Positions 1 through 26,508 of a DNA stretch of 64,000 nucleotides are shown piece after piece. The stretch comes from Mobula hypostoma (Eukaryota). Position numbers and translations under genes: made by a program. Below the pieces are notes generated by a model. The model was not told where the DNA came from, did not search any database, and saw only the letters and a list, made by a program, of their open reading frames with translations. The stretch lies in assembly GCF_963921235.1 (NCBI RefSeq), contig NC_086097.1:112284001-112348000 (forward strand), written 5' to 3'. Within the stretch, counting starts at the first letter, position 1. Every line of letters begins with the position of its first letter.

Positions 1-160
1 TGCCAGGGGTGGTGAAGAGGCACATTGGGGGCATTTAAGAAACCCCTAATGGCACAGGGATGATAGAAAGGAAGGGTTAGATTGACTAGAGAACGTTAAA
101 AGTTCAGCACAACATCATGGGCTGAAGGGCCTATACCATGGTGTAATCTTCTACGTTCTA
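1..160 (+). mobile_element. CR1 LINE 3' end fragment
   Basis: Typical CR1 3' UTR (cagcacaacatcatgggctgaagggcct...) ending in a ttctacgttcta tail. Confidence 0.75.
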
Positions 161-1451
161 AATGAGGAAGAAAGATGTCTCCTTTCCCTCTTTTTCAATA
201 CTTTGAACAAGGGATAGTGAAGTACATTAGATCTATTCTAAACAATCAGGTAGTTTCTTTGTTTATCAAATGTTTTTGTCTGAGCTTCACTAACTTGATT
301 ATGCATTGAGAGATTTGACACAAGAGTTCACTATTCCACATGTTATTTCCAATCGATTATGCTGTATGTATGACCTATATTAGCACTCCTCTACCAGGAC
401 ACTGTTTCTGAAAGTGCAGGACTCCCTAAAAAAAATTAAATGGCGGCTTAAGTTAAATATTTGCCCTGACGTTTTCAGTTTCATATACGGTAATTTCTGT
501 GGTGTTATGCAATTAAAAAAGCATTTTATTTCACAGCAAAATGCGATGATGATAATGCCAATTAGGTTTTACTACCACTGTGCAGAATAAGGACGTCTGC
601 CAAGTAAGTAAAAAAATTATATTGAATGTTGGCTCCTCTCCATTATCAAATTGTATTGCATTAAAAGTTCATTCAAAATCAATCTATATTTACCCCAACC
701 CCCATCAACTGATATCATTTAAACTTCCGAGGTCAATGTCTCAGTCACCTTGGCCACAGCAAAGGCCTAATTAGGCCTGCAGCCACCAGCCATTCTGAAA
801 GGACGACTGGAGGCACATTTTTGCTGTCAAAAGTGTTTGACGATTGTATTATCTAGCACACTCAATCATTGCACTAGAATTTCAAAGCAAATATACACAA
901 CAACTGAAATAACAACACGATTAAAAAAAAACAACATAGCCCATGGTGTCAAAGAGAAATGCACACTAAGCATGAATGGAAATGATGACCAAAAGCTTGT
1001 CCAAAGTGATATTACCATGATACGGACAAGTTAAAAGAAGAAAGAAAGGTGTGGAAATAATGAAAGAGAATTTCTGAGCTTGGGGCAAGACAGCTCAAAG
1101 GTCAAAATTGAGTGATTACTTTTATGGATAACCCAGTCTAGATTATGTTCGACTGAGGAAATGGTACTTGAAGGCCTCACATCCGGGACAAAGTTCATGG
1201 TTTACCACCAGTGAATCCTGACCTCCTGTATAGCTCTAAGGCCTGGGCTGCTTTCAGTTGGCATTTCCCGGCATGGTAAAAATATGTACAGTCATAGGGT
1301 ACTACAGCATGGAAACAGGCTCTTTGGCCCAACTAGTCCATGCTGACCACGGCATCCACCCTTCGAGTCCCTGTTGCCCAGATTCAGCCCATAACCCTCC
1401 AAGCTCCTTCTCTCCAAGTGCCTGTCCAAATGGATCTTAAAGGTTGCAATT

Positions 1452-1648
1452 GGGGTGTTTGGGGTGTCAGGGAGGGGTAGCACCTCTGCTGGGGGAACAT
1501 GTCGCGTCCTTTTCAAGGCGGTTAGTCCACCTTAGGTCCCCACCTGGCACTCATCTCTCACCTGTGGCTCCCCGTAGCTGTTTGTATGCGACAGCGGCCA
1601 CACCCCGGGCGACAGCTTCGACAAGCCGGCTAAACCAGGTGAGGGTTG
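1452..1648 (+). ncRNA. HDV-like self-cleaving ribozyme (predicted), copy 1
   Basis: P1 GGGGTGT 1452-1458 / ACACCCC 1600-1606; P2 CTCTCACCTG 1555-1564 / CAGGTGAGGG 1636-1645; P3 GGC 1566-1568 / GCC 1597-1599; L3 starts TCCCCG; P1.1 GG 1607-1608; P4 1613-1628; J4/2 GCTAA with putative catalytic C1630. Confidence 0.75.
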
Positions 1649-2009
1649 TCGACGGGTCTCAAACCCTCGGTGAGATAGGGAGTTGTCTATCCCAGCATGT
1701 GAAGACATACTCCGGCGGATTGAGTGGACTAATGGAAGGTCCAACGGTCAAGAAGGCAGTCTCTGCAAGCACCGTGGAATGTGTAGAGCAGGACAAGACA
1801 CAGAAGACGTCCTGGTCATCCACTGCGCCTGGTCCCATCTCCAGCCATCTCGACTCTGTCTTGCCACTGGATCCAGATGGGAATTGGGAAGAGAGAGTGA
1901 GGCTGACGCTGCACAACTCTCCCTCACTTAAATCCAAATCATGCGCTAGTCGCGACACCAGCATAATGGTGTTGAGGTCCTCATCGACGTTGACGATGGA
2001 TGAACAACC
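1452..2009 (+). mobile_element. Non-autonomous RTE-type retroposon (5' UTR joined to 3' tail), copy 1
   Basis: 13-bp TSD AAAGGTTGCAATT (1439-1451, 2010-2022); no credible ORF; RTE-like tail GACGATGGATGAACAAC; second copy at 11487-12048. RTE assignment from recalled consensus sequences. Confidence 0.8.
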
Positions 2010-2099
2010 AAAGGTTGCAATTGAGCCTGCCTCGACCACTTCCTCCTGCAGATCATTCCAGGTACTCACTACCTTCTGTGTAAAGAAGTTGCCTCAAAT

Positions 2100-2570
2100 T
2101 TCAAACAACACACAGAAAATGCTGGATGATTTCAGCATGTCAATGAAAATGAGTAGATAGTTGATGTTTCAGACCAAGACACTTCATTAGGACTGAAAAG
2201 GAAGGGGGAAGATGACTGAATAAAAGGGGAGGGGGGAGGAGAAGGAGTCTATCTGGAAGATGACAGAGGAATCCAGGTGGTTGGGAAAGGCAAAGAGCTG
2301 GAGAAGAAGTAATCTGATAGGAGAGGGGAGTGGACCATAGGAAAAGGGGAAGGGGGTGTGGACACAGGGGGAGGTAATAGGTAGGTGAGAAGAGGTAAAT
2401 GACCAGAGTGAGGAATTGAGGAAGAGGGGAGGGGGAGGAACTTTTTTTTACTGGAAGAAATCAACATTCAATTTTTATTCATTTCCCTATATGCTGCCTG
2501 ACCTGCTGAGTTCTCCAGCATTGTGTGTGTTTTGCTGTGGATTTCCAGCATCTGTAGACTTCCTCATGTT
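2100..2570. mobile_element. Penelope-like element remnants (both orientations) with degenerate hammerhead
   Basis: Same family as 51403-52094: aaatgctgga..., purine-rich tract, atgctgcctgacctgctgagtt; decayed hammerhead on the minus strand near 2160-2195. Confidence 0.65.
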
Positions 2571-2574
2571 TATT

Positions 2575-3100
2575 CTATGAAATCTTTCCTCTCATCATGT
2601 ATCTGTGCCCTCTAGTTTTGGATTTACCCCAAGGAAAAGAATATGATGGGTTGCTGTATGTCAGGAAAAATTCCAATAATCCAAAAATCTAAATCCCTGC
2701 CCCATGCACCAGCCCTTCAGCTAACATTGATCTGGCCTATCTTTCTATTCCTGTACTCGCGTGTAATCCAACGATCACTAACATTGAGCTTTGGCATTTT
2801 ATTTTCTGATCTAACTCGTTATACTTATTCTGCAGGATCTCATCCTTTGTTTGCCTATGTCATTTGTACCAATTCGTACAATGACCTCTGGCTGCTCACA
2901 TTCTCCCTTGAGAATTTTCTGCATCCACTCAGAAATATCCTTGACCTTGGCACCATGGAGACAACACACTATCCTGCCATTTCTGTGGTCGGTCACAGAA
3001 TCTTCTGTGGTCGGTCATCGAGTCCCTACCACCATTGCTTTGACTGACTGCACTCTTTCCCTCTACACCTCAGAGCCAGTCATAGTTGCAGAGCCTGATT
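2575..3100 (-). mobile_element. CR1 fragments including ORF1 SGNH-esterase region
   Basis: ORF 2811-2996 CLHGAKVKDISE...EQPEVIVRIGTNDIGK, homologous to the esterase ORF at 23371-23718. Confidence 0.7.
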
Positions 3101-3559
3101 CTAGTAAGAACACCTCCGCCACGGGGGATCCTGCATTGTCTTCCACGTTGTTGTCTGAATCCTTAGTGCCTAGGTGGCACATGCTTGCATTGTCTTCCTA
3201 CTCCCCCTAATTCTCCTATCTCTGATGCTGCCTCCACAAGTTCTCCATATTGATTGGAAGAATAATTAAACTAAGGATTAGTGTTCTCTCCCAGGCTAAC
3301 ATTTCAATTTTAAGGTCCTCATTACTCTCAGTTGTCCACACTGAGCTAGCCACACAGTGTCTGACACTAGACATCCAAACCAGACATTCTGTCATAAACT
3401 CTGTCAGGCAGACAAAGAAAAATGATCTGAAATGTGTTCAAAGCTTCTTTGAAGAAGTTCACTGATTCCTGAGAATACATGACCAATGTACTCAGCAACT
3501 CAGTGTGGAGAACCTCAAGACTATGCATCTGGAATAAGCAATGGAGTGAGTATACTGCC

Positions 3560-4430
3560 TCAAAAACTACCTTAAAGGTATGAGGAATCCACTACTGAAG
3601 AATCCACAAAACTGGAGTGGAAGCAAAATATCCTCAGTCTGGAGGACTACCACAGAAGAATGGAGAAGAGGACAGAATTATAAAATGGCGTGTTGTCAAT
3701 GGTGTGAACCTCTTCAATGATATTGCTGAGAAAATTAAAGTTGCTGATCCTCTCCACCTCTGCTCCCCTGATGAGGACCACAGCTCATGGACATCTGGTT
3801 TCCTCCTCTTGAAGTCAATAATCAGTTCCTTGTTCTGGCTGACATTGAGTAAGAGGTTGTTGCTCTTGTGACACCACTCAGGCAGATTTTCTATCTCCCT
3901 CCTATATGCTGATTCATCACCCCTTTTGATTCGGCCCACAACAGTGGTGTCATCAGCAAACTTGAATATGGCATTGGAGCTGTGCTCAGCCTCACAGTCA
4001 TAAGTGTAAAATGAGGATAGATGCCTTGTGGTGCATCTGTGCTGATCTGACCTGACTGGGGTCAGCATGTGAGGACATTGAGGATCCAATTGCATAATGA
4101 AGTGTTGAGGCCAAGGTCTTGAAGTTTATTAATTAATTTTGACGGTGTGATAGTATTGACTGCTGAGCTGTAGTTGATAATGCTCACCCTGTGTATGCAT
4201 CTTTGCTGCCCAGATGTTCCAGGGTTGAGTGAAGAGCCAATGCGATGGTATCTGCTGTGGACCTGTTGCTTTGGTAGACAAATTGGAGCAGATCAAAGTC
4301 ACTTCTCAGGCAGGAGTCGATATGTTTCATCACCAACCTCTCAAAACACTTCATCATTATGGATGTAAGTGCTGCTGAAGGATAGTCATTGAGGCAGAGT
4401 ACCCTGTTCTTTTTGGGCACTGGTGTAAGC
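3560..4430 (-). mobile_element. Rex1/Babar-type LINE RT fragment (decayed)
   Basis: KFADDTTVVGRIKRGDESAYRREI and ALTSIMMKCFERLV...[14 protein letters not shown] motifs. Confidence 0.85.
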
Positions 4431-6759
4431 GAAGGAACAATGAGAGATTGACCTGATAAGCTCACCACCATTTCAATGCCTCACTTGAATAACCCTTCTC
4501 GGTGATGTCCCAGCTTATCCACCCTTCACCTGATAATGTAGTTCAGTAGCAGGAAGGATCTTGCCCTTCCACAGCAAAACTGGTGGAAGAAAGTAACAAT
4601 GGTACTAGGCCTGACAGCAAATGAAATTGTAGACTACTGTAGAATGCTCTTCTCTTCATTCTGATGCACAATGCCTCATCTTCTAAGATGTCAATCTTGA
4701 CTACATCTTAATTGAATTTTTAATTTCATGGTACTTCAAAATTTCCCCGGCACCTTCTTTTCTTCCTACTGCTGCATCTTTGGATTTTGTTCCCATTGAG
4801 GCAGAGTGATACAGCTGAGAATCCGACTGCACAGTCAATGGCCTTCATCTTGAAAAATGGTTTAGATAAATTGTGCGACAGGAGGTGGGTGGATTCTTGC
4901 CATAAGGAAACAATTTCATGTGTCGATTCATCATGCTTCCATCTTATTTTGTCCTTTGTTTTGAAACTCAATGGAATATTAGAATAGCAACCTTTGTTGT
5001 TATTAAGTCTGACAGAATTTATAGCAGCAATCTAAATTGGTCACAAAAGAGAAACTGCTTCAACTTTACTCTCATATGCTCTAATGTCAATGGCTAATTA
5101 TATTGGATTAATGTTTTAATATTAAGATTTAGTCTGTATCTTCTGAATACATTAGTTTATCATTAAAAAGAGGAAATAAAATAATGCAATAAAATTTAAT
5201 TGCACATTTTTCATGTCTGGATTAGAATATAATATTTGTTAATAATAAGCTATCAACACTAATTTATCATGCTATTGCTAGCGCTCAAACAGTTTGATGT
5301 TTCCATATTAGATGTCAAGCAAACATTTTTGTAATCAGTTTACAAATAGAAAATGCAATGATTGGAGTCACCTACAATTAAACATCCCATATTGATGCAC
5401 AACATCCTATATCTATGGAAGTAGGCTGTTGAGAAACTATAGGAGACTGGGGCTAGCTGGGGAGTTCTTTCATCGAGGCAAAGTCATGAGGGACCAGATG
5501 GCCTCCTTCCACACTGTATGATCCTTGTGATGAAATTGATACACCACACTTCTAACTTCTTTTCCTTAGAAATCACAGTGTGGTTTGTCAAATACTTGGC
5601 TTTGACACATAACGCTTAATTTTTCAGAGGGAGCATTCCTATCTTCTCCACATGCGTGCCAACTAAAAAAAAGTGTGATTCTTCAATCTGCATTCTTCTG
5701 AATGAATGCCTGCCCAGTATAATTAAGCTATCTTTTCACTGGTTTGTCACCGAACATGCCAAGCCTCCTGATGGAATGAATTGCTCTAAAACGCCACACA
5801 AAATGTGACCTTGTTTGGCTGCCAATGAGTTTTCAAACTGAACAATTTATGGAATTAGGCTTTCAGACAATTATTGTAAGTTACAGCACAAATGTTGGAA
5901 CATTTGGATAAATTAGCAATAGAAAAATTCATGATCAGATCTAACTATGGCCTAACTATGCAAGGTAGCAAACTGTGTGCATTAAATATTAGGCTGGCTG
6001 ACTTGAACATAATCCAGCCTCTGAATTGCAAACGTATTTATTTAAATTCAATTCTAGGATTTTAATACTTAGCTTGTGCTAATGCTATTGTATAAGCAAG
6101 TCCTGCAATATCATGTTTTAAAAGTATAAACCTGGAAGCATATTTAGGTTATTAATTGTCTTGTTCATAATGATGCTCATAACAAAACAATTGCCATTTC
6201 TATTTTCTTTGTGTTTTCAGATTCAGATTAAGATTTATTTATCACATGTGTATCAAAACATAGATTCTGTTAGCAGCCTAAGGTTACACAGGGGGCAGCC
6301 CACAAGCGTTGTCACATATTCAGGCCAACATGACAACATAATCCAACAATCTACGGAGAAAAACACAAGCAGCAGCAACAACAACAACAACAAGACAAAA
6401 CAACGTAACAACAACAACACAAGCCCCTTTTCCACCCTTGCATCCCTCCACAGACACAGGACTCCAACCCCAGGACAGGTCTGCAACCTTGGCTCTGGAC
6501 TCTCAAACTCACAGACATCAGGCCACCAATGTCCAGTCTCTCACCTGGACTTTCAGATTCTATATACCATAATTTGCCTTTGATAAACTTGTTTATTGAG
6601 AAGGATCAGACCAAAATGTTTTGTCAAATTTACTTCAGTTCCAAATGTAGCTGAAGTGTAGCAACATTCTGATCATTGCTGTAATATGGTCTATTTTCTG
6701 AATAGGATGAAATGGAAAGCTGCATTGACTATTGATATGTAAAACCATATACGAAGTTT

Positions 6760-7325
6760 GCTTTAGGTTTGTCAGAATCAGGTTTAATATTACTAGTTGT
6801 AAAACTGATTCTTTTGTGGCAGCAATACATAACAAGAAAACTGTGAATTACAATAAGTATGATATATATATTAAGTAGTCAAATTAAATTAGAACGGTAA
6901 AGAAAAAGTAGTGAAGTAGTGTTCATGGGTTCAATGTCCATTCAGAAATTGGATGGCAAGGGGGAAGAAGATGCTCCTGAATTATTGAGTGTGTGTCCTC
7001 AGGCACCTGTACCTCCACCCTGATGGTAACAATGAAAAAAGGGCATGCCCTGGGTGATGCATGGTCCTTAATGAAGCCTCCTTGAGGCACTGCTCCTTGA
7101 AGATGCTTGGATGCTATGGAAGCCAGTATCCATGATGGAGCTGACTGAGTTCATAACTTTCTTTAGCTTGTTTCGATCCTGTGCAGTGCCCTGTGCACCC
7201 CGGCCCAACGCCATACCAGATGGTGATGCAGCCAGTAAGAATACCCTCCATGGTACACTTGTGGAAATTTGTGAGTGCCTTCGGTGACGTACCAAATCTC
7301 CTCAAACTCCTAATGAAAAATATTC
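6760..7325 (-). mobile_element. Rex1/Babar-type LINE 3' fragment
   Basis: FIRSLRRFG...LTNFHKCTMEGILTGCITIWYG; tail cagaatcaggtttaatat. Confidence 0.8.
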
Positions 7326-10299: not shown

Positions 10300-11486
10300 C
10301 AATACTCTTACATAGACAACAGTGCATGCGCAGATAACAGATCAATATGTAGTGCCAAAGGGGGTGTCATTGCTCTCAAAGAAATAGATCCATACATTAC
10401 ACTTCCTCTCCCTTTAGATTAATGCAGCATAAAACTGTACATGTACAAAACATTCAATTTCCCTTTCATAAACCCATAATCCAAATAAACATGTTTTCAC
10501 AATAACAGTCCATAACTACCTTCACAGTTCTAAAGATTTTGGGTGGTGCCTTGTTTCTTTTAGGATAGCACCTCTGGACCTGTGGAGTGGCATCAGGTTT
10601 GGCAGGTGTCTTGTCTAAGACAACATTCTCGGTTTCCGGTGTCATGTTGCTGTTAGTGACATCATCACTGAGAGGCAAGTTAGGTGTCCGTCTTGTTGGA
10701 TACAGTTGATGCAGGTGTCTTTTTCGGTTGAGCATCCAGTATCTGGTCCACATGACGTCTGCATGTCTGATTTCCAACATCGACTATGTACATCAACAGT
10801 CCCGTTCTTGTAGCTATCCTACCAGGTGTCTACTTGTCTTCATGGTAATAAGTGCCAGGACTTCTTGTCCAATCTTGAAGCTCCTTACTGTGTCACTTGG
10901 CAACTGGCTGAACTGCTTATTCTTCACTTCCCTCCGTAGATCTAGTTTCAGGAGGTTTAAGCAAGATCTCAGATTCCTGTTCATGAACAGCATTGCGGGT
11001 GATTGATTTGTCGTTGCATGAACAGAGTTCCGATACACCAAAGGAAGTTGTCCACCTTGTGCTGTAGAGAAATGTCCTCCATGACCATCGCTTTAATGGG
11101 TTTCTTGAAGGTTTGAATAAACCTTTCAGCTAACCCATTCATTGCAGGGTGGTGAGGAGCTGACTTGAAATGTCGATGCCATTTTTTTTCATGAACAGTT
11201 GGAATTCTTCTGACGTGTATTGTGGTCTGTTGTCACTCACAATTTGTTCTGTTAAGCCATTTCTTGCTAAGATAGTCCTCAGAGCAGAGACAGTTTTTGC
11301 TGAGGTGCTTGACTTCATTGTTATTACCTCCAGCCACTTCGAATGAGCATCCACTTTAGGATGTAGTATGTAAGGCACTGGACACACTTTATGGAATCTT
11401 GGTGCTGCTGTTTCATCCAGTTCAGTTTTGGCCTTCATGCCGTTGAGTTTATCAATTCCCTTCTCAAACACCTTATCATTAGCATT

Positions 11487-11680
11487 GGGGTGTATGGGGT
11501 GTCAGGGAGGGGTAGCAACTCTGCTGGGGGAACATGTCACGGCCTTTTCAGGGCGGTTAGTCCACCTTTGGTCCCCACATGGCACTCAGCTCTCACCTGT
11601 GGCTCCCCGTAGCTGTTTGCATGTGACAGCGGCCACACCCCGGGCAACGGCTTCAACAAGCCGGCTAAACCAAGTGAGGT
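11487..11680 (+). ncRNA. HDV-like ribozyme (predicted), copy 2
   Basis: P1 GGGGTGT 11487-11493 / ACACCCC 11635-11641; P3 GGC/GCC; GGGCAA junction; perfect P4 CGGCTT/AAGCCG; J4/2 GCTAA (C11665); one mismatch in P2. Confidence 0.7.
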
Positions 11681-12191
11681 AGCTGACAGGTCTCAAACCC
11701 TCGGTGAAATAAGGAGTTGTCTATCCCAGCATGTGAAGACAGACTTCGGCGGATTGAGCCTACGAGACCAATGGAAGGTCCAATGGTCAAGAAGGCAGTC
11801 TCTGCAAGCATCGTGGAACGTGTCGAGCACGACAAGACATAGAAGACGTCCTGGTCATCTACTGCGCCTAGTCCCATCTCCAGTAGTCTCGACTCTGTCT
11901 TGCCACTGGATCCAGATAGGAATTGGGAGACGAGAATGAGGCTGACACTGCGCAACTCTCCCTCACTTAAATCCAAATCATGCGCTAGTCTCGACACCAT
12001 CATAATGGTGTTGTGGTCCTCATCGACATCGACGATGGACGAACAACCAAAGGTTGCAATTGAGCCTGCCTCGACCACTTCCTCCTGCAGATCATTCTAG
12101 GTACTCACTACCTTCTGTGTAAAGAAGTTGCCTCAAATTTCAAACAACACACAGAAAATGCTGGAGGAATTGACGACGACGATGGACGAAC
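11487..12191 (+). mobile_element. Non-autonomous RTE-type retroposon, copy 2, with captured flank and duplicated tail
   Basis: Core 11487-12048 homologous to 1452-2009; 12-bp TSD ATCA(T/C)TAGCATT at 11475-11486 and 12192-12203 inside the Gypsy pol. Confidence 0.85.
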
Positions 12192-14964
12192 ATCACTAGC
12201 ATTAAGCAGCTGTGCCAGTCTCTGGTTAGTGCTACCATCTGAGCTGCTGTTACCCATTGATGTCACACTGTGAACTTTGATTGAGTGCCAGTCTAATTGG
12301 ATCCTTTTCTCATTTACGTCTGAAAAGTGCTGGCCCTCCCTTTCCAAATACATAAAGTTCTAATTGTTGTGTTTGGCCTCCTTACATCACCTTCACTTTC
12401 AGTATGCCTTTGGGGGGACAGTTTTTCATCTGTGTAGCTCTTTAGCATCACTGAGGTCTTCTCTAATGGTATCTTAGAAAACAGTCTCTGGAATTTAGCT
12501 TCTGGAATTATAGACAAAGTTGACCCTGTGTCCAGCTCCACTTTCCATTTTACACCAGACGCATCTATTGTGATCCATAATACATTGCTAACTGTTTCAG
12601 TAATACTATGCAGTTCTAGGCATGACTGTTCACTTTTCTCAGTCTCTATGCTTCTGTTTTACATTTGGCAATTTTATTCATTTGCTTAGCTTTATGTTTG
12701 AGACTTTTCACTCGGTTGTGCTTTTTGTCTGCCTTGCGCACTCCCTCTATGTGACCTTGTCTGGGACACTTTCTGAAGACTTTTTCTTTGTACTAAGTTA
12801 TTTGCATCATGGGAGGATTTGCCACATTGATAATATTTTTGGCTTTTTGCACCATTCAGGGACATCTTGTGCATTTCACATTCTAACCTCCTTTTCTGTA
12901 GTTCTGCTGCATCATTTGCTGTAGTCTATTACGACATTGCAATGGTCAATGCCCATTCTAAGGTTAGGTCTCTTTCTGCCAGTAGTCTTGTTTGAGTGCT
13001 TTGACTATGCATGACACAGACAAGCCTTTCGCTGAATGTGTCAGAAAGTCCACCTGTGAAGTCACAGTACTGGGAAAGTTTGTGCAGTTCTGCTATGTAC
13101 TCATAAAGACTTGCATTTTTTGACTGGTTCCTTTTGTAAAATTTAAATCTCTCAGCTACTACCAGCGGTTTAGGGCTCAAGTGATTTTGTAAAATTCTAA
13201 CTATTTCCTCAAACGTCTTGCTGGCTTTTCAGGGGTTACTAAATAGAGACCACGTCCTTGCACCCACTTAGCTAAGAAGTGCTGGGGCCTTCTTTTGCTC
13301 CTCCACATTACAATACAGTTCAACGCTCTTGATATATAACTCCCAGCCTTCATTAGCACTATCAAATTTGTCAGCTTTCCCGACTGAAGCCATTGTCATG
13401 TTATTTTCACTTTAAATTCAGTGCGTCTTTCACTGTTACTCATGCCTTTGTTGGCATCTGCGACGACCTTCTTGTGCTGTTTAATACTTGCTGTTTCATC
13501 CTGTAATCGTCCTGTAACTATCTGAGCAGTTGGTGATATTTTCTGACACTCAGGTTCGTGTTCCTCACCAATTTGCTGTGTCTGTGCACAACTACATATC
13601 AATTAAATAAAAGTACACATGTGGGAGATGGCTTTAACTGGAGTATTCACACTGAGCAAGAGAGAGAGAGAGGGAGAGAGAGAGAGAGAGAGAGCAATGC
13701 GCATGTGTAGACTATAGTGCATGTGCAAACAACAGATCAATACATAGTGCTAAGTGAGGGGGTGACCATTGCTCTAAAACAAATAGATCCATACGTTACA
13801 AATACTATCTTCTTCTCAAAGCTAATTAATAGCTCCAAGACCTAGGCCTCAATACCTCAATGCTGCTCAATTTCTTCACTTGCAGTCCTCAGTCAGTTTG
13901 AATTGGCAATAACATCTCCTCCATTATCTCTCTCATCACAGGTACACCACAAGGCTGTGTGCTTAACCCCCTGCTCTACTCATTTTATATCATGACTGTG
14001 AGGCTAAGCACAACTCCAATGCCACATTTTGAGTTTGCTGATAACACAACTGCTGTTGGCTGAATCAAAGCTGATGATGAATCAGCATATAGGAGGGAGA
14101 TTGAAAATCTGGCTGAGTGGTGCCACAACAACCTCTCACTCAATGAAAGCAGAACCAAGCAGCTGAGGGGGAGGAAAGCAGAGGCCCTTGAACCAGTCAT
14201 CATCAGGGGATCGGTGGCGGAAAGGGTCAGCAATGTTAAATTCCTCAGTGTTATTATTTAAGAGAATCTGTCCTGGGTCAATCTTAGACAGAAAGTGTCA
14301 TTACAAGTAAAGCACAGCAAATATTCGCATGTCATCTAAAACTATGACAAACATCTATTGATGTGTGGAGAATACACCGACTGGTTGCATTACAGCCTCG
14401 TATGGAAACACCAATGCCCTTGAATGGAAAAGCCTACAAAAAGTAATGGATACAGCCCAGTCCATCACGGATAAATCCCTTCCACCATTGAACACATCTA
14501 CAAGGATTGCTGTTGCAGGAAAGCAGCATCCATCATCAAGGATCCCCACCATCCAGGCCATGCTCTGCTCTTCTCACTGCTGCCATCAGGAAAGAGGTAG
14601 AGGAGCCTCAGGTCCCACACCACCAGATTCAGGAACAATTATTACTCCTTATCCATCAGGTTCTTGAACCAAAGTGTATAACTTCACTCACCCCATCACT
14701 GAACTGTTTCCAGAACCTATGGATTTATTTTCAAGTACTCTTCATCTTATGTTCTTGATATTTATTGCTTATTTATCTATGATTGGTATCTTTTCTTTTT
14801 ATATTGCTGCTTGATGTCTTTTGTACATTGGTTGTTTATCCATCTTGTTGTATGCGTTAATTTCACTGATTCTGTTATGTTTCTTCCTATTTACTGTGAA
14901 TGCCTGCAAGAATCCCAGTGTTGCATATGGTGACATATATGTACTTTGATAATAAATTTACTTT

Positions 14965-19107: not shown

Positions 19108-20289
19108 TTAAATGCTCATTAGAGTGAGATTGTTCAATCTGTTTTGACCCATGATGCTCCTTAGTTCATTTTTAACCCTTTTCAGTTTTGAAAAGGAGCA
19201 TTCTCCACTGCAGTTGGTAACCATGAGTAACAAATAGATGCGCAAGGCATTTTCTACATTTGGAAAATATGACTCCAAAGAATTGTCAGTTATCAAACAG
19301 TACAACTGTAACTCTACAAGGTCTTGTTTGGCGCCAATATGAGGAGCAAGATTAGTTTTCAACAGTTCAGTAAACTGCACGAATTCTTCATCAAGACTTT
19401 CTTCCAGATCTTCTGGATATGATTTAATAAGAGTTGATGACCTCTTTACGATCTTTTCAGGTGTAAACGACTGTAACTGATGAAGGAATCCAAAAACACC
19501 ATTCACATTTAGATAAGCTTTCTGCCTTTTTGACAGGGCAGAACGCAAGTTATCAATAATGGCAAGCAATGTTCGGCTTTTAAACTTCTGAGAAGGTGTT
19601 TGAGATTCAACAAGTGGATCAAGAGGGCTGGAACCACTGAAATCATCATTTGCGCAATTTTGCTTGTGTTTTCTTCGAGTTTGCTGTTGATAATGCCCAC
19701 ACTTAGTCATATCTTTGGCTTTTTGCTCAATGTCTGAAGAAGTAGACCGCATAGCTTGAATATATCCATGCAAGGATTCATAGAGTGCACAAGCTGTGTT
19801 AAAGACTTGGCCAGAAGATTGCAAAGAAGCACTGGTCATTTGAAAATGCTGTAATACTTGATCCCACAATATGACCATTATTCCTGTTTCCAACTTCATC
19901 ATGGTTGAAAGTAGTCCACGAGCCTGTTGTCGACACGCTGCCTTCAGATCATTGTTAATTGAAATGTCATCCAAGACTTGTTTTATTGCAGAAAAGCTGT
20001 GTAAAAGTGCTTTTGTTGCATCTGCAAGAGCTGACCACCTGGTATCTGACATTCTTTTCACAATGGGCAAATGAGCACCATCATCAGATAATGCAGCTGA
20101 AAAGCGATCCCACCGATAAATAGAAGCAGAAAAAAATGTGTAGAGGCTTTCTACAAATTGAAAGAAAATTAATGTTTCTTGACAAAATTCAGCAGCACAT
20201 TTTCCAACCAAATTTAGTGAATGTGCAAAACATGGAATGTAATCCGCAAACTCATTCAGCTCTTTAATTTGTGCTTGTAAGCTACTATA
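19108..20289 (-). pseudogene. hAT (ZMYM1-like) transposase C-terminal ~390 codons, still open; upstream piece at 23757-23897
   Basis: CFAHSLNL, TRWS and the dimerisation motif TNCSGECSFSKLKRVKNELRS. YDNASNM at 23760-23790 joins YSSLQAQI once the CR1 is removed. Confidence 0.88.
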
Positions 20290-23200
20290 CAATAGACAAT
20301 AGAAAATAGGTGCAGGAGTAGGCCATTCAGCCCTTCGAGCTAGCACCACCATTCACTGTGATCACGGCTGATCATCCACAATCAGTACCCTTTTCCTGCC
20401 TTCTCCCCATATCCCTTTACTCCGCTATCTTTAAGAGCTCTATCTAACTCTTTTTTGAAAGAATTCAGAGAATTGGCCTCCACTACCTTCTGAGGCAGAG
20501 CATTCCACAGAATCACAACCCTCTGTGTGAAAAAGTTTTTCCTCAACTCCGTTCTAAATTGTCTACCCCTTACTCTTAAACTGTGACCTCTGGTTCTGGG
20601 CTCCCCCAAAATCAGGAACATGTTTCCTGCTTCTAGCGTGTCCAATACATTAATAATCTTATATGTTCAATCAGATCCCCTCTCATCCTTCTAAATTCCA
20701 GTGAATACAACCCCAGTTGCTCCAATCTCTCAACATATGACAGTCCCGCCATCCTGGGAATTAACCTTGTGAACCTACGCTGCACTCCCTCAATAGCTAG
20801 AGTGTCCTTCCTCAAATTTGGAGACCAAATCTGTGCACAATATTCCAGGTGTAGTCTCACCAGGGCCCTGTACAACTGCAGAAGGACCTCTTTGCTCCTA
20901 TACTCAATTCCCCTTGTTATGAAGGCCAGCATGCCATTAGCTTTCTTCACTGCCTGCTGTATCTGCATACTTACTTTCAGTGACTGATGAACAAGGACCC
21001 CTAGATCTCATTGTACTTCCACTTTTCCTAACATGACACCATTCAGATAGCAATCTGCCTTCCTGTTCTTGCCACCAAAGTGGATAACCTCACATTTATC
21101 CACATTAAACTGCATCTGCCCATTCACCCAATCTGTCCAAGTCACCCTGCATTCTCATAACATCTTCCTCACATTTCACATTGCCACCAAACTTTGTGTC
21201 ATCTGCAAATTTGCTAATGCTACTTTTAATCCCTTCATCTAAATCATTAATGTATATCGTAAATAGCTGTGGTCCCAGCACCGAGCCTTGCGGTACCCCA
21301 CCAGTCACTGCCTGCCATTCTGAAAAGGACGGACCCATTAATTCCTACTCTTTGTTTCTTGTCTACCAACCAATTTTCTATCCATGTCAGTATCCTACCC
21401 CCAATACCATTTGCTCTATTTTTGCACACTAAGCTCCTATGTGGGACCTTATCAAAGGCTTTCTGAAAGTCCAGGTACACGATATCCACTGGCTTTCCCA
21501 TGTCCATTTTCAAAGACACATTCTCAAAAAATTCCAGAAGATTAGTCAAGCATGACTTCCCCTTCGTAAATCCATGCTGACTCGGACCTATCCTGCCAAT
21601 GCTATCCAAATATGCCGCTATTACATCTTTTATGATTGATTCCAGCATCTTCCCCACCACTGATGTCAGACTAACTGGTCTGTTTTCTCTCTCCCTCCTT
21701 TCTTAAAAAGTGGGATAACATTAGCTACCCTCCAATCCGCAGGAACTGATCCTGAATCTATAGAACATTGGAAAATGATTACCAATGCGCCCACGATTTC
21801 TGGAGCAACCTCTTTAAGTACCCTAGGAGGCACACCATCAAGCCTTGGGGATTTATCAACCTTCAGTCCCATCAGTTTACCCAACACCATTTTGTGCCTG
21901 ATGCGAATTTCCTTCAGTTCCTCTGTTACCCTAGGTCCTCTGGCCACTATTACATCTGGGAGATTGTTTGTGTCTTCCTTAGTGAAGACAGATCCAAAGT
22001 ACCTGTTCAGCTCGTCTGCCATTTCCTTGTTCCCCATAATAATTTCACCCGTTTCTGTCTTCAAGGGCCCAACTTTGGTTTTAACTAATTTTGACCTCTT
22101 CACATACCTAAAGAAGCTTTTACTATCCTCCTTTATATTCTTGGCTAGCTTACCTTACTACCTCATCTTCCCCCCCCCCCCCCCCCGTGTTGCCTTTTTA
22201 GTTATCGTCTGTTGCTCCTTAAAAGTCTCCCAATCCTCTGGCTTCCCACTCATCCTTGCTATGTTATACTTCCTCACTTTTATTTTTATACTGTTCTTGA
22301 CTTCCCTTGTCATCCACGATCGCCCCTTACTCCCCTTAGAACCTTTCTTCCTCTTTGGAATGAACTGATCCTGTATCTCTGTATTATTCCCAGAAATACC
22401 TGCCATTGTTGTCCACTGTCATCCCTGCTAGGGTATCTTTCCAGTCAACTTTTGCCAGCTCCTCCCTCATTGGTCCATAGTTCCCTTTGTTCAGCTGTAA
22501 TACTGACACTTCTGATCTTCCCTTCTCCCTCTCAAATTGTAGATTAAAACTTATCATATTATGGTCACTACCTCCTAATGGCTCCTTTACCTCGAGTTCC
22601 CTTATTAAACCTGGCTCATTACACAGCACTAAATCTAGAATTGCCTTCTCCCTGGTTGGCTCTAATACAAGCTGCTCTAAGAATCCATCTCTGAGGAATT
22701 CCACAAACTCCCTTTCTTGGGGTCCAGTACCAATTTGATTTTCCCAGTCTACCTGCATCTTAAAATCCCCCATAACAACCGTAGAATTACCTTTGCGACA
22801 TGCCAATTTTAACTCTTGATTTAACTTGCACCCTATATCCAGGCTACTGTTTGGAGGCCTGTAGATAACTCCCATCAGGGTCTTTTTGCCCTTACAGTTT
22901 CTTAGTTCTATCCATACTGACTCTACATCTCCTGATTCTGTGTCCTCCCTCACAAGTGACTGAATTTCATTCCTCACCAACAGGGCCAACCCACCGCCTC
23001 TGCCCACCTGTCTGTCCTTTCAATGGGATGTATACCCCTGAATATTCATTTCCCAGCCCTGGTCCTCTTGCAGCCATGTCTCTGTTATTCCCACAACATC
23101 ATACTTGCCAATTTCCAACTGAGCCTCAAGCTCATCCACTTTATTTCTTATACTCCTTGCATTCATATATAATACTTTTAATCCTTTTAAAGTAATACTT

Positions 23201-23755
23201 TTACTCCCCTCACCTTTCACATCGATTCCTATTGCACTTGCCCATACTCTCCGATCCCTTCCTGATCTTTCTGCCCCTTTAATTCTGTTGTCTTTCTTAA
23301 CTTTTCTTATTCTCTCATTCCCTCTAACTCCATTCTTATATTTCCAGTTCATTCCCTCCCCACCCACTACTTAGTTTAAACACACCCATGTAGAAGTGGC
23401 AAACCTGCCTGCCAGAATGCCGGTCTCCCCTCTGTTAAGGTGCAACCCGTCCCTTCTGTACAATTCATCCTTACCCCAAAACAGATCCCAGTGGTCCAAG
23501 AATCTAAATCCCTGCTTCCTGCACCAGCTCCTCAGCCACACGTTCAGATCCCCTATCTCCCTGTTCCTGCCCTCTCCAGCACAAGGAACTAGAAGCAAAC
23601 CCGAGATAACCACCCTTGAGGTCCTGCTTTTCAGCCTTCTTCCGAGTTCTCTGAAGTCACTCTGCAAAATGTCTCTCATCTGCTTCCCGACGTCATTTGT
23701 GCCGACATGCACCACCACCTCCGGCTGATCACCTTCTCCCTTGAGGATGCCCTGC
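20290..23755 (-). mobile_element. Relatively young CR1 LINE, 5'-truncated (ORF1 esterase, AP endonuclease, RT; frameshifted)
   Basis: VHVGTNDVG...DGLHLN esterase; YMNARSI, GITETWL, YRPP, SDHN endonuclease; YLDFQKAFDKVPH, GVPQGSVLGP, KFADDTK RT; caatagacaatag tail. Confidence 0.95.
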
Positions 23756-26508
23756 GATCGTTCATGTTGCTGGCATTGTCATAATTTTGACTACAGCAGT
23801 CTTTTATATCAATGTCATTTTCCTTTAAAAAGTCATGTAAACTTTGAGTGAGCTGTTCAGCACTATGACCTTGCACATCCAAAACTTCACAAATCATTCA
23901 ACTGGTCCAGAGGGCAAAACATAGCGAGTCAAAGTCAGCAGTGCACCCTCCAGCGGCGTAACAGTGCACGCTGCAGCGGCTTGGGAGCGTGGGAGATAGC
24001 ACAAAGGTCACCATGACACAGCAAGGAGCCAACACACGTGTGCACACACATACCATGCAGCCAGCAGCTCCCCGACATGAAAACAACAGCGTTGCCAGAT
24101 TGTCGTGAGAATACGGTGAGATGTCGATTTCACCAGCCTGCAACTTGCAAGCATTTAGTGTGGGGCCCTCGAAAATGCAGGGCCTGTAGCATATGCTACT
24201 TTTGTTACTAGGTTAATCCGGCCCTGCCCAGAGCCATCAATCGCTTTTCATAATGCAATCTATTCAATCCTGGAATCATTTTTGTGAACCTCCTTTGAAC
24301 CCTCTCCAATTTCAGCACATCCTTTCTAAGATAAGGGGCCCAAACCTGCTCACAATACTCCAAGTGAGGCCTCACCCATGCTTTATAAAGTTTCAATATT
24401 ACATCCTTGCTTTTATATTCTAGTCCTCTTGAAATGAATGTTGGATTTGAAAAACAATGAAAAACATTGAATTTGCCTTCCTCACCATAGACTCAACCTG
24501 AAAATGAACCTTCAGGGGATCCTGCACAAGGACTCTCAAGTCCCTTTGCGCCTCAGTTCTTCTCTCCATTTAGAAAATAGTCAACCCTTTCATTTCTACT
24601 ACCAAAGTGCATGACCATACACTTCCCGACAGTGTTTTCCATCTGCCATATCTTTGCCATTCTCGAATCTGTCTAAGTCCTTCTGTAGACGCTCTACTTC
24701 CTCAAAACTACCTGCTACATCACCCATCTCCATATCATCTGCAAACTTTGCAACAAAGCCATAAATTCCATCAACCATTGACATATAATGTAAAAAGAAT
24801 CAGTATCAATACAGACCCCTGTGGAACATCACTAGTCACCGGCAACCAACCAAAAAAGGTTCCCTTTATTCCCACTCTTTACCTCCTAACAATCAGCCAC
24901 TGCTTTATCCATCCTGAGATATTTCCTGTAATGCCATGGGATTGTAGCTTGTTAAACAGGGCCTTCTGAAAATCCCAGTACACAGCATCAACTGATTCTC
25001 CTTTGCCTATTCTAATTGTTATTTATTCAAAGAATTCCAACAGATTCAACAGGCAAGATTTTCCCTTGAGGAAACCATACTGTCTACAACCTATTTTATC
25101 TTGTTCTTCCAAGTACCCTGAGGCTTTATCCTTAATAATCAACTCCGACATCTTCCCAACCACTGATCAGACCAACTGGCCTATAATTTCCTTTCTTTGG
25201 CCTCTCTCCATTCTTGAAGAGTTGGGTAACGTTTGCAATTTTCTAGCCTTCCAGAACTATTCCAGATTCTTGAAATATCATTACTAATGTCTCCACAATC
25301 TCTTCAGCCACTTCTTTCAGAATCCTTGGGTGCACACCACCTAATCCAGGTGACTTACTTATTATTCTTGGGAAAATTTTTCTACAGGAGTGGTTTGCGT
25401 TTGCCGGTGACCCGGCATTATCAATACTCTCTGAGATTGCTTGGGGTCAGTGGTCGCATAACGTGGATTTGATCAGGGTAAGCAGGTGCTACACGTTGCC
25501 CAAGGCCGACCTGCGGGCCAGCAGAGGGAAGGAATGCCTTGCACCTCCTTTTAGCCCACCATGCTTATGTATGTGTACTAAAATACTAAAATAAATATGT
25601 TTATTATCTTATCAAATGGTTTAAAGTTCTGCTCACTCTTATGCTGTGTTAATTTTTGTACTAAGGCAGTGAATAGCAGGTTAATTGTAACAAAAGCACA
25701 TTAAATTTTGTTTTATAATTACACTGGAACCAAACAGAAAATGCTGGTTATAAAAGATTATTATAGACAGGTCTCACAGTCAATCATCATCTAATAAACT
25801 TCATATTGCATCCTTCAAGTACTTCTCCCATCCTTCCCTCTGCTTTAATATGACCAATGCCTCTTCACATTACTGGCACCGAGCACTGTTAGACCACCCT
25901 CTATCCTACTGTTTTCTGGGTGAAATGCTTTTATTCCAGAAAGGCAACAATGAATAGTATGAACTGATCTATTTCACAGATGATCTATCTGATGTCAAAT
26001 CCCAATTGTGTGAAGTTGAACAGTTCAAATAATGTGCACCAAGCTGCCCAGCCATGTCACAAAGCACCACATCATCAGGTTAATATATGTGCCTAAGTTT
26101 TAAAGCACACACATTATAGCAAAAGTGAGCTAGCTTACTGAAGAATAAATATCTTGGAAGTACATTTCTTTCTTTGTTACAATCTAAAAAGTCTGAAACT
26201 TTTTTCCTAACAACACTGGGAGCACTTTCTACACACTGACTTCAGTAGCTCAATACTAACTCAAGAGGAGAAAGGGATAATTAGATCTATGAATAATGAA
26301 AATAAATCTGCATTTATACAAATTCATCATCAGAATGTTAATAATAACTTTTGTTAGTGCAGTAATAAAAAGGAAAATCTGCTGTAGTGGTGCAATACAT
26401 TCATGGCTTTGAATTACTATGATGTTAGATTCACCTCTAGTAGACTTGCAGATCTACATAGAGGGAAAAGGAAAATCAGGGACAGCTGGATTGAGGAATT
26501 GTCCGTCC

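Follow-up and report, generated by a model that had tools for sequence, protein, structure and literature searches.

The RNA of a dispersed retroposon family, here called X, probably begins with an HDV-like ribozyme that takes up its first ~195 nt, to judge from the order and pairing of its sequence elements. One copy of the family, copy A, lies in the window (the whole 64,000-nt stretch of DNA that we analysed), where an earlier note had proposed such a ribozyme at the 5′ end of a non-coding, RTE-type retroposon. Every element of the HDV double pseudoknot claimed there is present and stands in HDV order when the sequence is read directly (Table 1). More tentatively, and stopping short of calling it probable, we propose that X belongs with a sister family, Y, to one superfamily, several thousand copies strong in this vertebrate genome, and that the heads of both are active HDV-like ribozymes built in a structurally new way: an additional helix extends from L3 next to the active site.

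The proposed mechanism would run as follows. X would be transcribed within longer host or read-through transcripts, as we infer from an element without a recognisable promoter. The first ~195 nt of the RNA would fold into an HDV-like nested double pseudoknot, in which the long P2 (8 pairs in copy A, 11 in the family consensus) would hold P1 and P2 together. The head would cut itself 5′ of G1 (position 1452), releasing an RNA whose 5′ end is exactly that of the family. The 3′ stem-loop and its (AACA)n/(AACC)n tail would recruit a LINE reverse transcriptase for target-primed reverse transcription, a process that would yield target-site duplications of 8-15 bp. The earlier picture had been of a ribozyme-headed, ORF-less retroposon that uses RTE machinery; the retroposon, its fixed 5′ end and the fit to the fold all stand, and the assignment to RTE is unsupported.

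Family X is a retroposon with a fixed 5′ end

Family X is a non-autonomous, SINE-like non-LTR retroposon, and the segment at 1452-2009 is one old, decayed copy of it. The typical length is ~563 bp, and copy A is shorter by a private 5-bp deletion. A first look at the genome gave at least 4,333 candidate copies, and a 16-mer from the J4/2-P2 part of the head has 3,725 exact genome matches. Copies are dispersed at varied insertion sites and carry visible target-site duplications, 8-15 bp long across the family. Past the 3′ stem-loop, the copies other than copy A end in (AACA)n or (AACC)n; stem-loop and tail together are the presumed recognition site for a LINE reverse transcriptase. Copy A itself interrupts an older host repeat, which continues on both sides of it. 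The X element is rich in conserved hairpins over its whole length.

The first base after the target-site duplication had been identified with G1 of the ribozyme. Taken alone, copy A leaves this ambiguous, the base after the duplication being G on both sides, but the family places the first base at 1452: 26 of the 30 best-matching X copies start with GGGG directly after unrelated flanks, and the expected pile-up of 5′ ends at the first G of P1 is borne out in the same copies. We also chose 20 copies among the first 100 chromosome-1 matches listed for the J4/2-P2 16-mer, ignoring their 5′ ends in the choice; 16 extend to the first ~10 nt, and the remaining 4 are truncated or rearranged. In contigs carrying four other organism labels, sequence depth climbs from the bin at 1430-1450 to the bin at 1451-1471 in each case (1090 to 284709, 20 to 6700, 32 to 6894 and 0 to 26). 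One contig, from a run that we guess to be RNA, spans the 5′ junction and could be uncleaved RNA or DNA.

It is the element, not the flanking DNA, that sets the 5′ end, because the window's other copy, copy B, starts at G1 despite carrying a 117-nt flank from a foreign locus. Copy B and the segment attached to it are bounded by a target-site duplication of their own (11476-11486 / 12193-12203). The first nucleotide of P1 and the element's 5′ end thus coincide in position, and cleavage is predicted at that point. A fixed 5′ end is equally expected if the start of the RNA is set by an internal promoter, either of polymerase II type or of an unusual polymerase III type, with the HDV likeness an inactive remnant or a by-product of GC-rich sequence that pairs extensively. 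We regard this as unlikely, although it accounts for several of the observations that follow.

The head follows the HDV layout with two insertions

The long J1/2 had been described as closed by a 10-bp stem; the stem is there, and it also appears in the minimum-energy fold. A second GGGGTGT, at 1461-1467, includes the 5′ strand of this stem. P2 in the X consensus reaches back to 1554, and two of its 11 pairs are G-U. The two P1.1 pairs are C-G in 48 and 54 of 63 copies. P4 of copy A is mismatched at 1614, where it has A and the family has G.

Table 1. Positions in the window of the ribozyme-like head, of the retroposon copies and of their boundaries.
Feature	Position	Strand	Details
Target-site duplication, 5′ copy	1439..1451	+	13 bp, AAAGGTTGCAATT
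Copy A of family X	1452..2009	+	558 bp; ~93% identical to other copies
P1, 5′ strand	1452..1458	+	GGGGTGT; 7 Watson-Crick pairs with 1600-1606; predicted cleavage 5′ of G1452
J1/2 peripheral domain ("P1.2")	1459..1556	+	98 nt
J1/2 closing stem	1462-1471 / 1543-1552	+	GGGTGTCAGG / CCTGGCACTC; 10 pairs, 2 of them G-U
Inner J1/2 stem	1474-1477 / 1538-1541	+	GGGG/CCCC
P2, 5′ strand	1557..1564	+	CTCACCTG; 8 pairs with 1636-1643
P3, 5′ strand	1566..1568	+	GGC
L3 core	1569..1574	+	UCCCCG: U, CC for P1.1, two variable positions, G
L3 hairpin insert	1575..1596	+	22 nt; stem GCTGT 1577-1581 / ACAGC 1591-1595
P3, 3′ strand	1597..1599	+	GCC
P1, 3′ strand	1600..1606	+	ACACCCC
P1.1 GG	1607..1608	+	C1570-G1608, C1571-G1607
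J1.1/4 and P4	1609..1629	+	family P4 is 1613-1616 / 1625-1628, short
J4/2	1630..1635	+	CUAAAC; C1630 occupies the catalytic cytosine position
P2, 3′ strand	1636..1646	+	CAGGTGAG (1636-1643) plus GGT extension
3′ stem-loop and tail of copy A	1982..2009	+	CATCG 1982-1986 / CGATG 1994-1998
Target-site duplication, 3′ copy	2010..2022	+	AAAGGTTGCAATT; 13-14 bases recurring at 2010-2023
Copy B of family X	11487..12048	+	90.5% identical to copy A; begins exactly at the family's first G
Segment joined to copy B	12049..12192	+	3′ flank of copy A, 117 bases (12049-12165), then a second X tail (12166-12192)

HDV-like ribozymes generally close P3 with a compact L3 of ~7-8 nt. The L3 of X is not compact: it measures 28 nt and holds a conserved 5-bp hairpin (1577-1595), the stem of which is 94.5% paired over 63 copies. 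To our knowledge a hairpin inside L3 is not a feature of any characterised HDV-like ribozyme, and a literature phrase search returned no description of a helix inserted in the L3 of one. Its position beside the active site is atypical, and it could abolish activity. J4/2 is usually 4 nt long and has 6 nt in X. At the base of P1 a G-U pair is usual in HDV-like ribozymes, if not universal. The X consensus has G-C at the cleavage site, and single copies have G-C in 30 of 63 cases and G-U in 9 of 63, counts in which C-to-T decay and an ancestral U are indistinguishable, the C of the pair lying in a CpG.

X matches the HDV layout well, yet these deviations adjoin the active site. The combination could mark a fossil ribozyme of an ancestral LINE, inactivated or crippled by the L3 hairpin, by the cleavage-site G-C pair or by both, with X and Y spreading in some other way; a reverse transcriptase that ran off nicked or degraded read-through RNA might, for example, set the 5′ ends. 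We consider this history quite improbable. Uniform 5′ ends are not expected from random RNA breakage, the L3 insertion is old and conserved in X and Y with its stem kept paired, and the other catalytic features have stayed intact through two successive amplifying families, which is hard to account for without selection on master copies. That the hairpin is foreign to the active HDV-like ribozymes we know of would also suit a head whose likeness to HDV is a by-product and whose RNA starts at a promoter.

The fit to the fold exceeds chance expectation

We judged the fit with an HDV descriptor of our own that permits insertions in J1/2 and L3, the kind of search that the earlier note had called for. 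Its loose form asks for a 7-bp P1 (G-U allowed), a 3-bp P3, a 2-bp P1.1, an L3 of at most 40 nt, CNRA followed by 0-2 nt, and 6 bp or more in P2. The strict form asks for at most one G-U in P1, U....G in L3, a P2 of at least 8 bp, and C[U/G]AA. On both strands of the 64-kb window the sole match to the loose form is this element, at 1452-1643, and 19 of 30 X copies pass the same form anchored at nt 1-3. Markov sequence of the element's composition gave 200 loose matches in 1.92 Mb (1.0e-4 per position), sequence of the window's composition gave 47 in 2.11 Mb (2.2e-5 per position), and real DNA gave 7 non-family matches in 441,400 positions (~1.6e-5). The strict form matched once in 2.69 Mb.

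For a match anchored at the retroposon's exact first base, the chance is thus ~1e-4 to 4e-7 per position, a rough range since the criteria were set after the sequence had been seen and the first-stage scan spanned very many windows. These results support a match between the head and the HDV double pseudoknot that goes far beyond chance, and an anchored match of such low probability argues against an HDV likeness that is a mere by-product. It is very improbable that X is an ordinary retroposon in which the HDV-like reading arose from seeking many short helices in GC-rich sequence. A loose match is expected ~3 times per 64-kb window on both strands, many windows were scanned at the first stage, and the nested pairs by themselves fold no more stably than shuffles do (z = +0.51), all of which speaks for chance; but the window's only match coincides with a retroposon's exact 5′ terminus, all 7 chance matches in real DNA lack both the U....G of L3 and CUAA, the strict form is as rare as stated, and conservation is concentrated on the core.

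An Rfam scan of 216 bases and of 6 kb, with E up to 10, returned no match to HDV, CPEB3, drz-Agam-1, drz-Agam-2-2 or the F. prausnitzii HDV-type model, and RF01788 searched over the genome gave 0 matches. A head that matches no HDV covariance model is in keeping with a by-product or inactive remnant behind a promoter. This negative result is nevertheless weak evidence, because the models cannot absorb insertions of 98 nt and 22 nt.

The catalytic core is conserved between sister families

Family Y, which is older than X and was found by pattern search, has the same build. It shares P1, P1′, P2, P2′, P3 and J4/2 with X, while CpG decay has made the GG of P1.1 less distinct in Y. The L3 of Y reads UCCAAG where X has UCCCCG, so that the two differ at positions 4-5 only, and J4/2 is identical in the two consensus sequences, the Y copies having been picked without regard to J4/2. 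Divergence is larger in the interior of J1/2 and in P4. Identity between X and Y is 48/51 in the core as against 95/119 in the periphery (Fisher p = 0.021), a modest contrast given that the heads are ~85% identical overall. In 40-nt windows along the element, the scores are 0.95 and 0.82 over nt 81-160, whereas windows outside nt 81-200 lie at 0.40-0.78. These comparisons support the view that conservation between X and Y peaks in the catalytic core.

The unpaired letters of the putative active site are exact between the two families (the U, CC and G of L3, CUAA, and the A-G before the C), whereas adjacent unpaired positions vary. This pattern speaks against an HDV likeness that is only a by-product. 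Conservation of the paired regions is less telling, since conserved hairpins throughout the element make it not specific to a ribozyme, as a by-product would have it. In the contigs with four other organism labels, P1, P2, P3, P1′ and J4/2 have no alternative letter at ≥25% among the positions listed. Within the L3 hairpin, changes at ≥25% among those listed fall only at 1578, 1585, 1590 and 1596, and the stem stays paired. The hairpin is present in both X and Y, with one stem pair changed from G-C to G-U in Y.

A covariation check, proposed with the original reading, came out in favour of P4 and the J1/2 stem and gave nothing for P1, P2 and P3, which are invariant between X and Y. At the P4 pair 1614/1627, 23 copies carry G-C, 10 C-G, 7 U-A, 3 U-G, 2 G-U and 1 A-U; X has G-C there, and Y has C-G, U-A or U-G. 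No other pair is clearly compensatory, and a plain hairpin would account for this one too. Y retains the J1/2 closing stem with different pairs: U-A replaces U-G, and there is an additional C-G with a bulged A. Both sides have changed in 38 cells, where shuffling gives 19.6 ± 3.7 (0 of 500 shuffles get to 38), and 88.3% of cells are paired, compared with 37-47% when the partners are slid. Across the contigs with four other organism labels no covariation was found in the core, which is invariant there. The 3′ stem-loop of Y is homologous to that of X and has different paired bases.

P1, P2 and P3 without covariation would likewise be expected if a promoter set the start of the RNA. So would the amplification of sub-lineages with an A-C mismatch in P1, of which we see two signs (A1457 in 5 of 30 copies; GGAGTGT in 2 of 20). 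Composite family Z retains the core without any P1 5′ strand; Z spreads in this state, so the core is not needed for the amplification of every relative, as would hold if it were a fossil. Our preferred reading is still that the head of X folds as an HDV-like ribozyme and would cut at G1.

Coding potential, promoters and the partner LINE

On its sense strand the family is ORF-less, in agreement with the earlier note, and the sense frames of the X consensus hold 2, 5 and 11 stops. Copy A has a sense frame that is open from end to end, but we rejected a coding reading: the frame is absent from other copies and coincides with the private 5-bp deletion. One antisense frame of the X consensus is free of stops, as is a reverse-strand frame in 13 of 30 copies. 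We treat this frame as chance, because random sequence of equal composition has an open frame in 55 of 3,000 cases, the rough consensus of Y lacks one, and the frame has no Pfam match; its best ESM Atlas score was 0.76. The element was also taken to lie antisense to a RIMS pre-mRNA; the 60 longest open frames of the window gave transposon domains only in Pfam and did not confirm this host gene.

No promoter was recognised in the element; a scan of the bacterial promoter/terminator type is irrelevant to this host. ARAGORN found no tRNA in the head, so we rejected a tRNA-derived origin. Rfam small-RNA families gave no match on the head (216 bases, 6 kb), and there is no likeness to 5S, 7SL or snRNA. 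Since the head is neither of small-RNA nor of tRNA type and contains a TTTT run at nt 60-63, X is unlikely to be a polymerase III SINE. The same facts, with no promoter recognised, count against an internal promoter as the source of the fixed 5′ end.

The label "RTE-type" is unsupported. A stem-loop with a short-repeat tail does not identify a clade, and pattern searches found no partner LINE of any clade. These searches were exhaustive and used "not-X" letters, and each would catch only ~6-32% of candidates. Foreign sequence upstream of the X tail gave 6 matches, none of them a LINE: 2 are X copies with indels, and 4 belong to an unrelated repeat with an internal 14-mer. A second search upstream of the tail gave 0 matches, as did one for foreign sequence upstream of X nt ~80. 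Downstream of the ribozyme-like head there were 51 matches, made up of X copies with indels, Y, composite Z and insertions, with no partner LINE among them, and none of the pattern searches returned an autonomous element sharing the X head. One candidate partner (L064), in which the head seemed to be followed by endonuclease and reverse transcriptase, was rejected. It is a separate LINE that interrupts a Y copy, as the remainder of Y continues past the LINE's (TTCTATGT)n tail, which we take to be CR1-like.

Significance and relation to known ribozymes

If the head cuts, it would explain how an element with neither promoter nor ORF, and with 3,725 intact core 16-mers, comes by its exact 5′ end. 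The HDV fold would then accept a helix inside L3, which would call for wider search descriptors, and structure searches with a fixed L3 length would have missed a whole class. The genome would hold potential self-cleavage sites by the thousand, a large share of them probably inside genes, and sense-oriented intronic copies with an intact core could cut host pre-mRNAs. If the head does not cut, X is a warning that even a very good fold match at the right place is insufficient. We know of few HDV-like ribozymes described in vertebrates (CPEB3 and some R2 elements), and a literature search that paired HDV-like ribozyme with shark returned one paper, which concerns R2.

The genomic and antigenomic ribozymes of HDV, here as generally known, share with X the nested double pseudoknot, a UCCNNG-like L3, and a CC that pairs with the GG after P1. 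The match between CUAA of X and antigenomic HDV was checked through the descriptor only. In HDV, J1/2 spans a few nt, L3 is a helix-free 7-8 nt, and the cleavage-site pair is G-U, whereas X has a 98-nt J1/2, a 28-nt L3, a 6-nt J4/2 and a consensus G-C at the cleavage site.

HDV-like ribozymes that trim the RNAs of non-LTR elements are already known in insects, trypanosomes and R2, and from some SINEs, according to excerpts of two papers (PMC3774820, PMC6765202), the second of which reports them from promoterless RTE and baggins elements as well as SINEs (PMC6765202). The drz-Agam-2 ribozymes, found at the 5′ ends of mosquito RTE elements, resemble X in the passages that describe them: they have a 7-bp P1, a paired J1/2 (P1.2), short linkers and a long P2, of 12 bp as against 11 bp in the X consensus (PMC4908430), and they stand at the 5′ end of a non-LTR element without a promoter of its own (PMC4908430, PMC6765202). 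For drz-Agam-2-1, the paired J1/2 domain, short linkers and 12-bp P2 are reported to activate the ribozyme (PMC4908430). The differences are that RF01788 is unmatched in this genome, that X alone has the L3 hairpin, that one host is an insect and the other has a genome of vertebrate size (3.48 Gb), and that X is non-autonomous, with no partner LINE found.

[quoted passage not shown] L1TcRz, within Pr77, is compact, and the same 77 nt also act as an internal promoter (PMC3185411, PMC3383444), whereas the X head spans ~195 nt and contains two insertions. In that system the autonomous partner is known; for X, the pattern searches found no autonomous element with its head.

R2 elements are site-specific in 28S genes, and their ribozymes often cut upstream, within rRNA. 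X, in contrast, has varied insertion sites, a predicted cut at its own first base and no 28S sequence. The two share an HDV-like head at the 5′ end, which in R2 cuts the element out of its co-transcript, and in the parts of the R2 survey drawn on here J1/2 is variable and sometimes very long (23 to >700 nt), P4 is variable, and few letters are rigidly conserved (PMC3774820). Duplication of the P1 strand is described there as a route of 5′ extension (PMC3774820), and X, which starts with GGGGTGT twice, resembles its outcome. Non-autonomous elements derived from R2 (SIDEs) are likewise reported to retain the ribozyme (PMC3414825).

A retroposon family with a fixed 5' end

Direct reading of window positions 1200-2600 delimits copy A of the non-autonomous non-LTR retroposon family X as a 558-bp insert at 1452-2009, flanked by a target-site duplication and lying within an older repeat that runs on past both of its sides. 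Most X copies are 563 bp long, and copy A carries a 5-bp deletion. The family is large: a whole-genome DNA search of the host (3.48 Gb, 200 contigs) turned up no fewer than 4,333 candidates at first look, with identity of 92-94% among the 40 that were scored. Genome pattern searches, which act as exhaustive regular-expression scans with counts reported, found 3,725 matches to the 16-mer GGCTAAACCAGGTGAG (end of P4, J4/2 and the 3' strand of P2) and 0 to its reversed control. The GGGG start directly follows unrelated flank in 26 of 30 fetched loci, and the first 1-3 bases deviate in the remaining four (L002, L006, L026 and L030). Target-site duplications of ~8-15 bp are readable in L003, L004, L010, L013, L017, L020 and L024, among others, and the 3' end reads CATCG-loop-CGATG-GA(C/T)GAACAAC followed by (AACA)n or (AACC)n.

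We also drew 20 copies, whatever their 5' ends, from the first 100 chromosome-1 loci listed for the 16-mer. Visual inspection showed 16 of them extending into the first ~10 nt of the head; the other four are truncated or rearranged. One of these four, L097 (G000:C1:36572686-36572936), has an inverted head joined to a forward copy exactly at the P1/P1' complementarity, an arrangement that snap-back or twin priming at those 7 nt could have produced. At the 5' junction of L017, a second copy of the element's first 8 bases and of 7 flank bases sits immediately before the true start; small junction duplications of this type have been described in R2 elements.

Eight coded organism labels have public runs that also contain words from the element. 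When contigs from four of these labels were aligned to window 1430-2030, depth was 1090, 20, 32 and 0 at 1430-1450 and 284709, 6700, 6894 and 26 at 1451-1471; this jump at 1451 therefore points to the same 5' boundary in all four. Both L3 types are present in those runs (C>A at 1572 and 1573), and no alternative letter reaches 25% in P1, P2, P3, P1' or J4/2 among the positions listed for the four labels. The deviating letters of copy A are mostly private to it.

As the earlier note had proposed, the family is ORF-less in the sense direction, its consensus being closed in all three frames (2, 5 and 11 stops). The sense frame open from end to end in copy A was rejected as family coding, since it is private to this copy, which has its private 5-bp deletion. 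An antisense frame of the consensus runs without a stop over 563 bp, and a reverse-strand stop-free frame is kept in 13 of 30 copies. We put it down to chance: an open frame also turns up in 1.8% of composition-matched random sequences, it is absent from the rough consensus of the sister family Y, and the open frames have no Pfam match and a best Atlas score of 0.76.

Anatomy of the head

All of the HDV elements that the earlier note had named in the head (the first ~195 nt) are present and in the right order on direct reading (Table). The J1/2 closing stem also appears in the minimum-energy fold. L3 insertions had received a passing mention; at this site we find 22 extra nt between the L3 G and the P3 3' strand, containing a 5-bp hairpin. 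Stability of the nested part of the fold is unremarkable (z = +0.51). The 216 bases searched match none of the HDV-type Rfam models at E up to 10, and RF01788 has 0 matches in the genome; these models cannot absorb the 98-nt and 22-nt insertions.

Features of copy A, copy B and other parts of the window
Feature	Position	Strand	Details
Target-site duplication, copy A	1439-1451 and 2010-2022		AAAGGTTGCAATT
P1	1452-1458 with 1600-1606	+	7 Watson-Crick pairs
J1/2	1462-1471 with 1543-1552 (closing stem)	+	98 nt; 10-bp closing stem
P2	1557-1564 with 1636-1643	+	11 pairs in family consensus
P3	1566-1568 with 1597-1599	+	GGC with GCC
L3	1569-1574	+	UCCCCG
L3 insertion hairpin	1577-1581 with 1591-1595		5 bp
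P1.1	C1570, C1571 with G1608, G1607	+	
P4	1613-1616 with 1625-1628	+	small; family pairs
J4/2	C1630	+	within CUAAAC
Open sense frame, copy A	1441-2157	+	
Copy B unit	11476-12203		own target-site duplication, TCATTAGCATT and TCACTAGCATT
X part of copy B	11487-12048		
Copy A 3' flank carried by copy B	12049-12165		117 bases, 1 mismatch to 2010-2140
Second X tail in copy B unit	12166-12192		
Transposon remains	19111-23778	-	
Transposon remains	11142-11501	-	
Transposon remains	40836-41261	+	
Transposon remains	52964-53770	-	
Weak MBII-202 match	3406-3485	-	27.5 bits; gathering score 40; E = 0.011

A tRNA-derived head was excluded, as no tRNA was found, and the head matches no Rfam small RNA. An internal promoter together with a structured head that does not cut would be an alternative to self-cleavage, which we hold to be a distinctly less probable account of the head than a ribozyme. 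A TTTT at nt 60-63 argues against polymerase III transcription.

Conservation is focused on the core

We compared the X majority sequence with that of its older sister family Y, the latter built from copies picked by an 18-mer. P1, P1', P2, P2', P3 and J4/2 are identical between the two, and the sole difference in L3 is at positions 4-5 (CC in X, AA in Y). Identity is 48/51 in the core compared with 95/119 in the periphery (Fisher p = 0.021), with 55/71 in the J1/2 interior and 14/20 in J1.1/4 plus P4. When a rougher full-length Y consensus serves as the reference, conservation across the element peaks in the 40-nt windows nt 81-120 (0.95) and 121-160 (0.82), and windows outside nt 81-200 range from 0.40 to 0.78.

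Across 63 X and Y heads, 88.3% of cells pair, compared with 37-47% when partners are slid, a contrast to be expected in part, as these heads were themselves used to derive the structure. Changes on both sides of a pair occur in 38 cells, against 19.6 ± 3.7 after shuffling (0 of 500 shuffles reach 38). The only clearly covarying pair lies in P4 (G-C 23, C-G 10, U-A 7, U-G 3, G-U 2, A-U 1), and the J1/2 closing stem persists, with U-A in place of U-G and an extra C-G pair that comes with a bulged A. Because P1, P2 and P3 are invariant at the family level, covariation neither supports nor contradicts them. That the head is a fossil ribozyme seems to us unlikely given this core-focused conservation.

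Chance expectation

The earlier note had suggested a search with an HDV descriptor, and our own descriptor matches only the X element in the 64-kb window: on both strands, the single match is copy A, from G1452 or from a second GGGGTGT at 1461. Its loose form takes a 7-bp P1 (G-U allowed), a 3-bp P3, a 2-bp P1.1, a P2 of at least 6 bp, an L3 of at most 40 nt and CNRA plus 0-2 nt. First-order Markov sequence yielded 200 loose matches in 1.92 Mb at element composition and 47 in 2.11 Mb at window composition. Real DNA of the fetched loci, searched on both strands, contained 7 non-family loose matches in 441,400 positions, none with a U....G loop or CUAA. Tightening the conditions stepwise on element-composition sequence left 245, 56, 9, 2 and finally 1 match in 2.69 Mb. 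A descriptor match somewhere in a large genome is meaningless. The chance of one beginning at the retroposon's first base is roughly 1e-4 to 4e-7, with thresholds chosen post hoc, after the sequence was seen, and the number of places considered in the first-stage scan not counted in. We judge it very improbable that the resemblance is accidental.

Related families and genomic context

Fifty-one genome matches to the 16-mer followed by non-X-like sequence revealed two further groups, Y and Z. Family Y is ~520 bp long (loci L039-L066 and L067-L086 of the source genome, G000), starts as X does (GGGGTGTATGGGGTGTCC), has the L3 sequence UCCAAG and ends in a stem-loop homologous to that of X with different paired bases. 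Its specific 18-mer, TCCAAGTAGCTGTTTGCA, has 696 exact genome matches, and 20 Y pieces were fetched by this word alone. Family Z joins a foreign head of ~460-480 nt, starting ATACAGTGGATTC, to Y from about nt 78, and keeps the putative ribozyme core without the P1 5' strand (copies L043, L045, L047 and L048, about 940-1840 in element orientation; the same junction in L038). In three Z copies the shared sequence continues past the tail, so a larger unit may include Z. A head variant seen as a single copy, L101 (G000:C1:64908617-64908867), has TCCTCG in L3 and differs in its J1/2 domain, which is also shorter, and may represent a third sub-lineage.

The description of the element as RTE-type is unsupported, because no partner LINE emerged from pattern searches for foreign sequence adjoining the tail or head of X. 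The matches were all X variants, Y, Z or insertions, each search being able to catch only about 6-32% of real candidates. Its placement antisense to a RIMS pre-mRNA was not confirmed from the window sequence. One locus (L064 and L087, G000:C45:5451634-5458685) holds a nearly full-length LINE with endonuclease, reverse transcriptase and a (TTCTATGT)n tail, which we take to be CR1-like. We rejected it as a ribozyme-headed LINE, since it is a separate element that entered a Y copy immediately downstream of the putative ribozyme and so mimics one.

The copy B unit looks like a chimera, and not a simple 3' transduction, because identity to copy A is about 99% in the flank but only 90.5% in the X part; perhaps it arose from read-through plus template switching, or from gene conversion. 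Other transposon remains in the window contain hAT dimerisation, integrase core and RNase H-like domains, a LINE with GDSL-esterase-like, endonuclease and RVT_1 domains, and a second endonuclease fragment. The C/D-box snoRNA family MBII-202 also has a weak match in the window.

Comparison with known HDV-like ribozymes

Its anatomy, placement at the exact 5' end, core-focused conservation and architectural parallels make a candidate self-cleaving HDV-like head the best explanation for the X head, one that we consider reasonably probable. The promoter, fossil and chance alternatives are all kept alive by the L3 hairpin, by a G-C pair at the predicted cleavage site and by core helices that show no covariation. 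Outside subscription journals, we found no description of a helix inside L3 of an HDV-like ribozyme, and a search combining such ribozymes with sharks returned R2 only, again with no L3 helix.

The review PMC6765202 describes HDV-like ribozymes that free some SINEs, as well as RTE and baggins elements that lack a promoter, from co-transcripts. According to PMC3774820, P1-to-P1' spans range from 23 to over 700 nt, P4 is variable, few letters are rigidly conserved, mismatches at the top of P1 are tolerated and P1 duplication is a route to 5' extension. The closest architectural parallel we can name is drz-Agam-2-1, which PMC4908430 reports to be sped up by nearly three orders of magnitude by a paired J1/2, short linkers and a 12-bp P2. 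The predicted X head shares this build, with a base-paired J1/2 domain, short linkers and a long P2.
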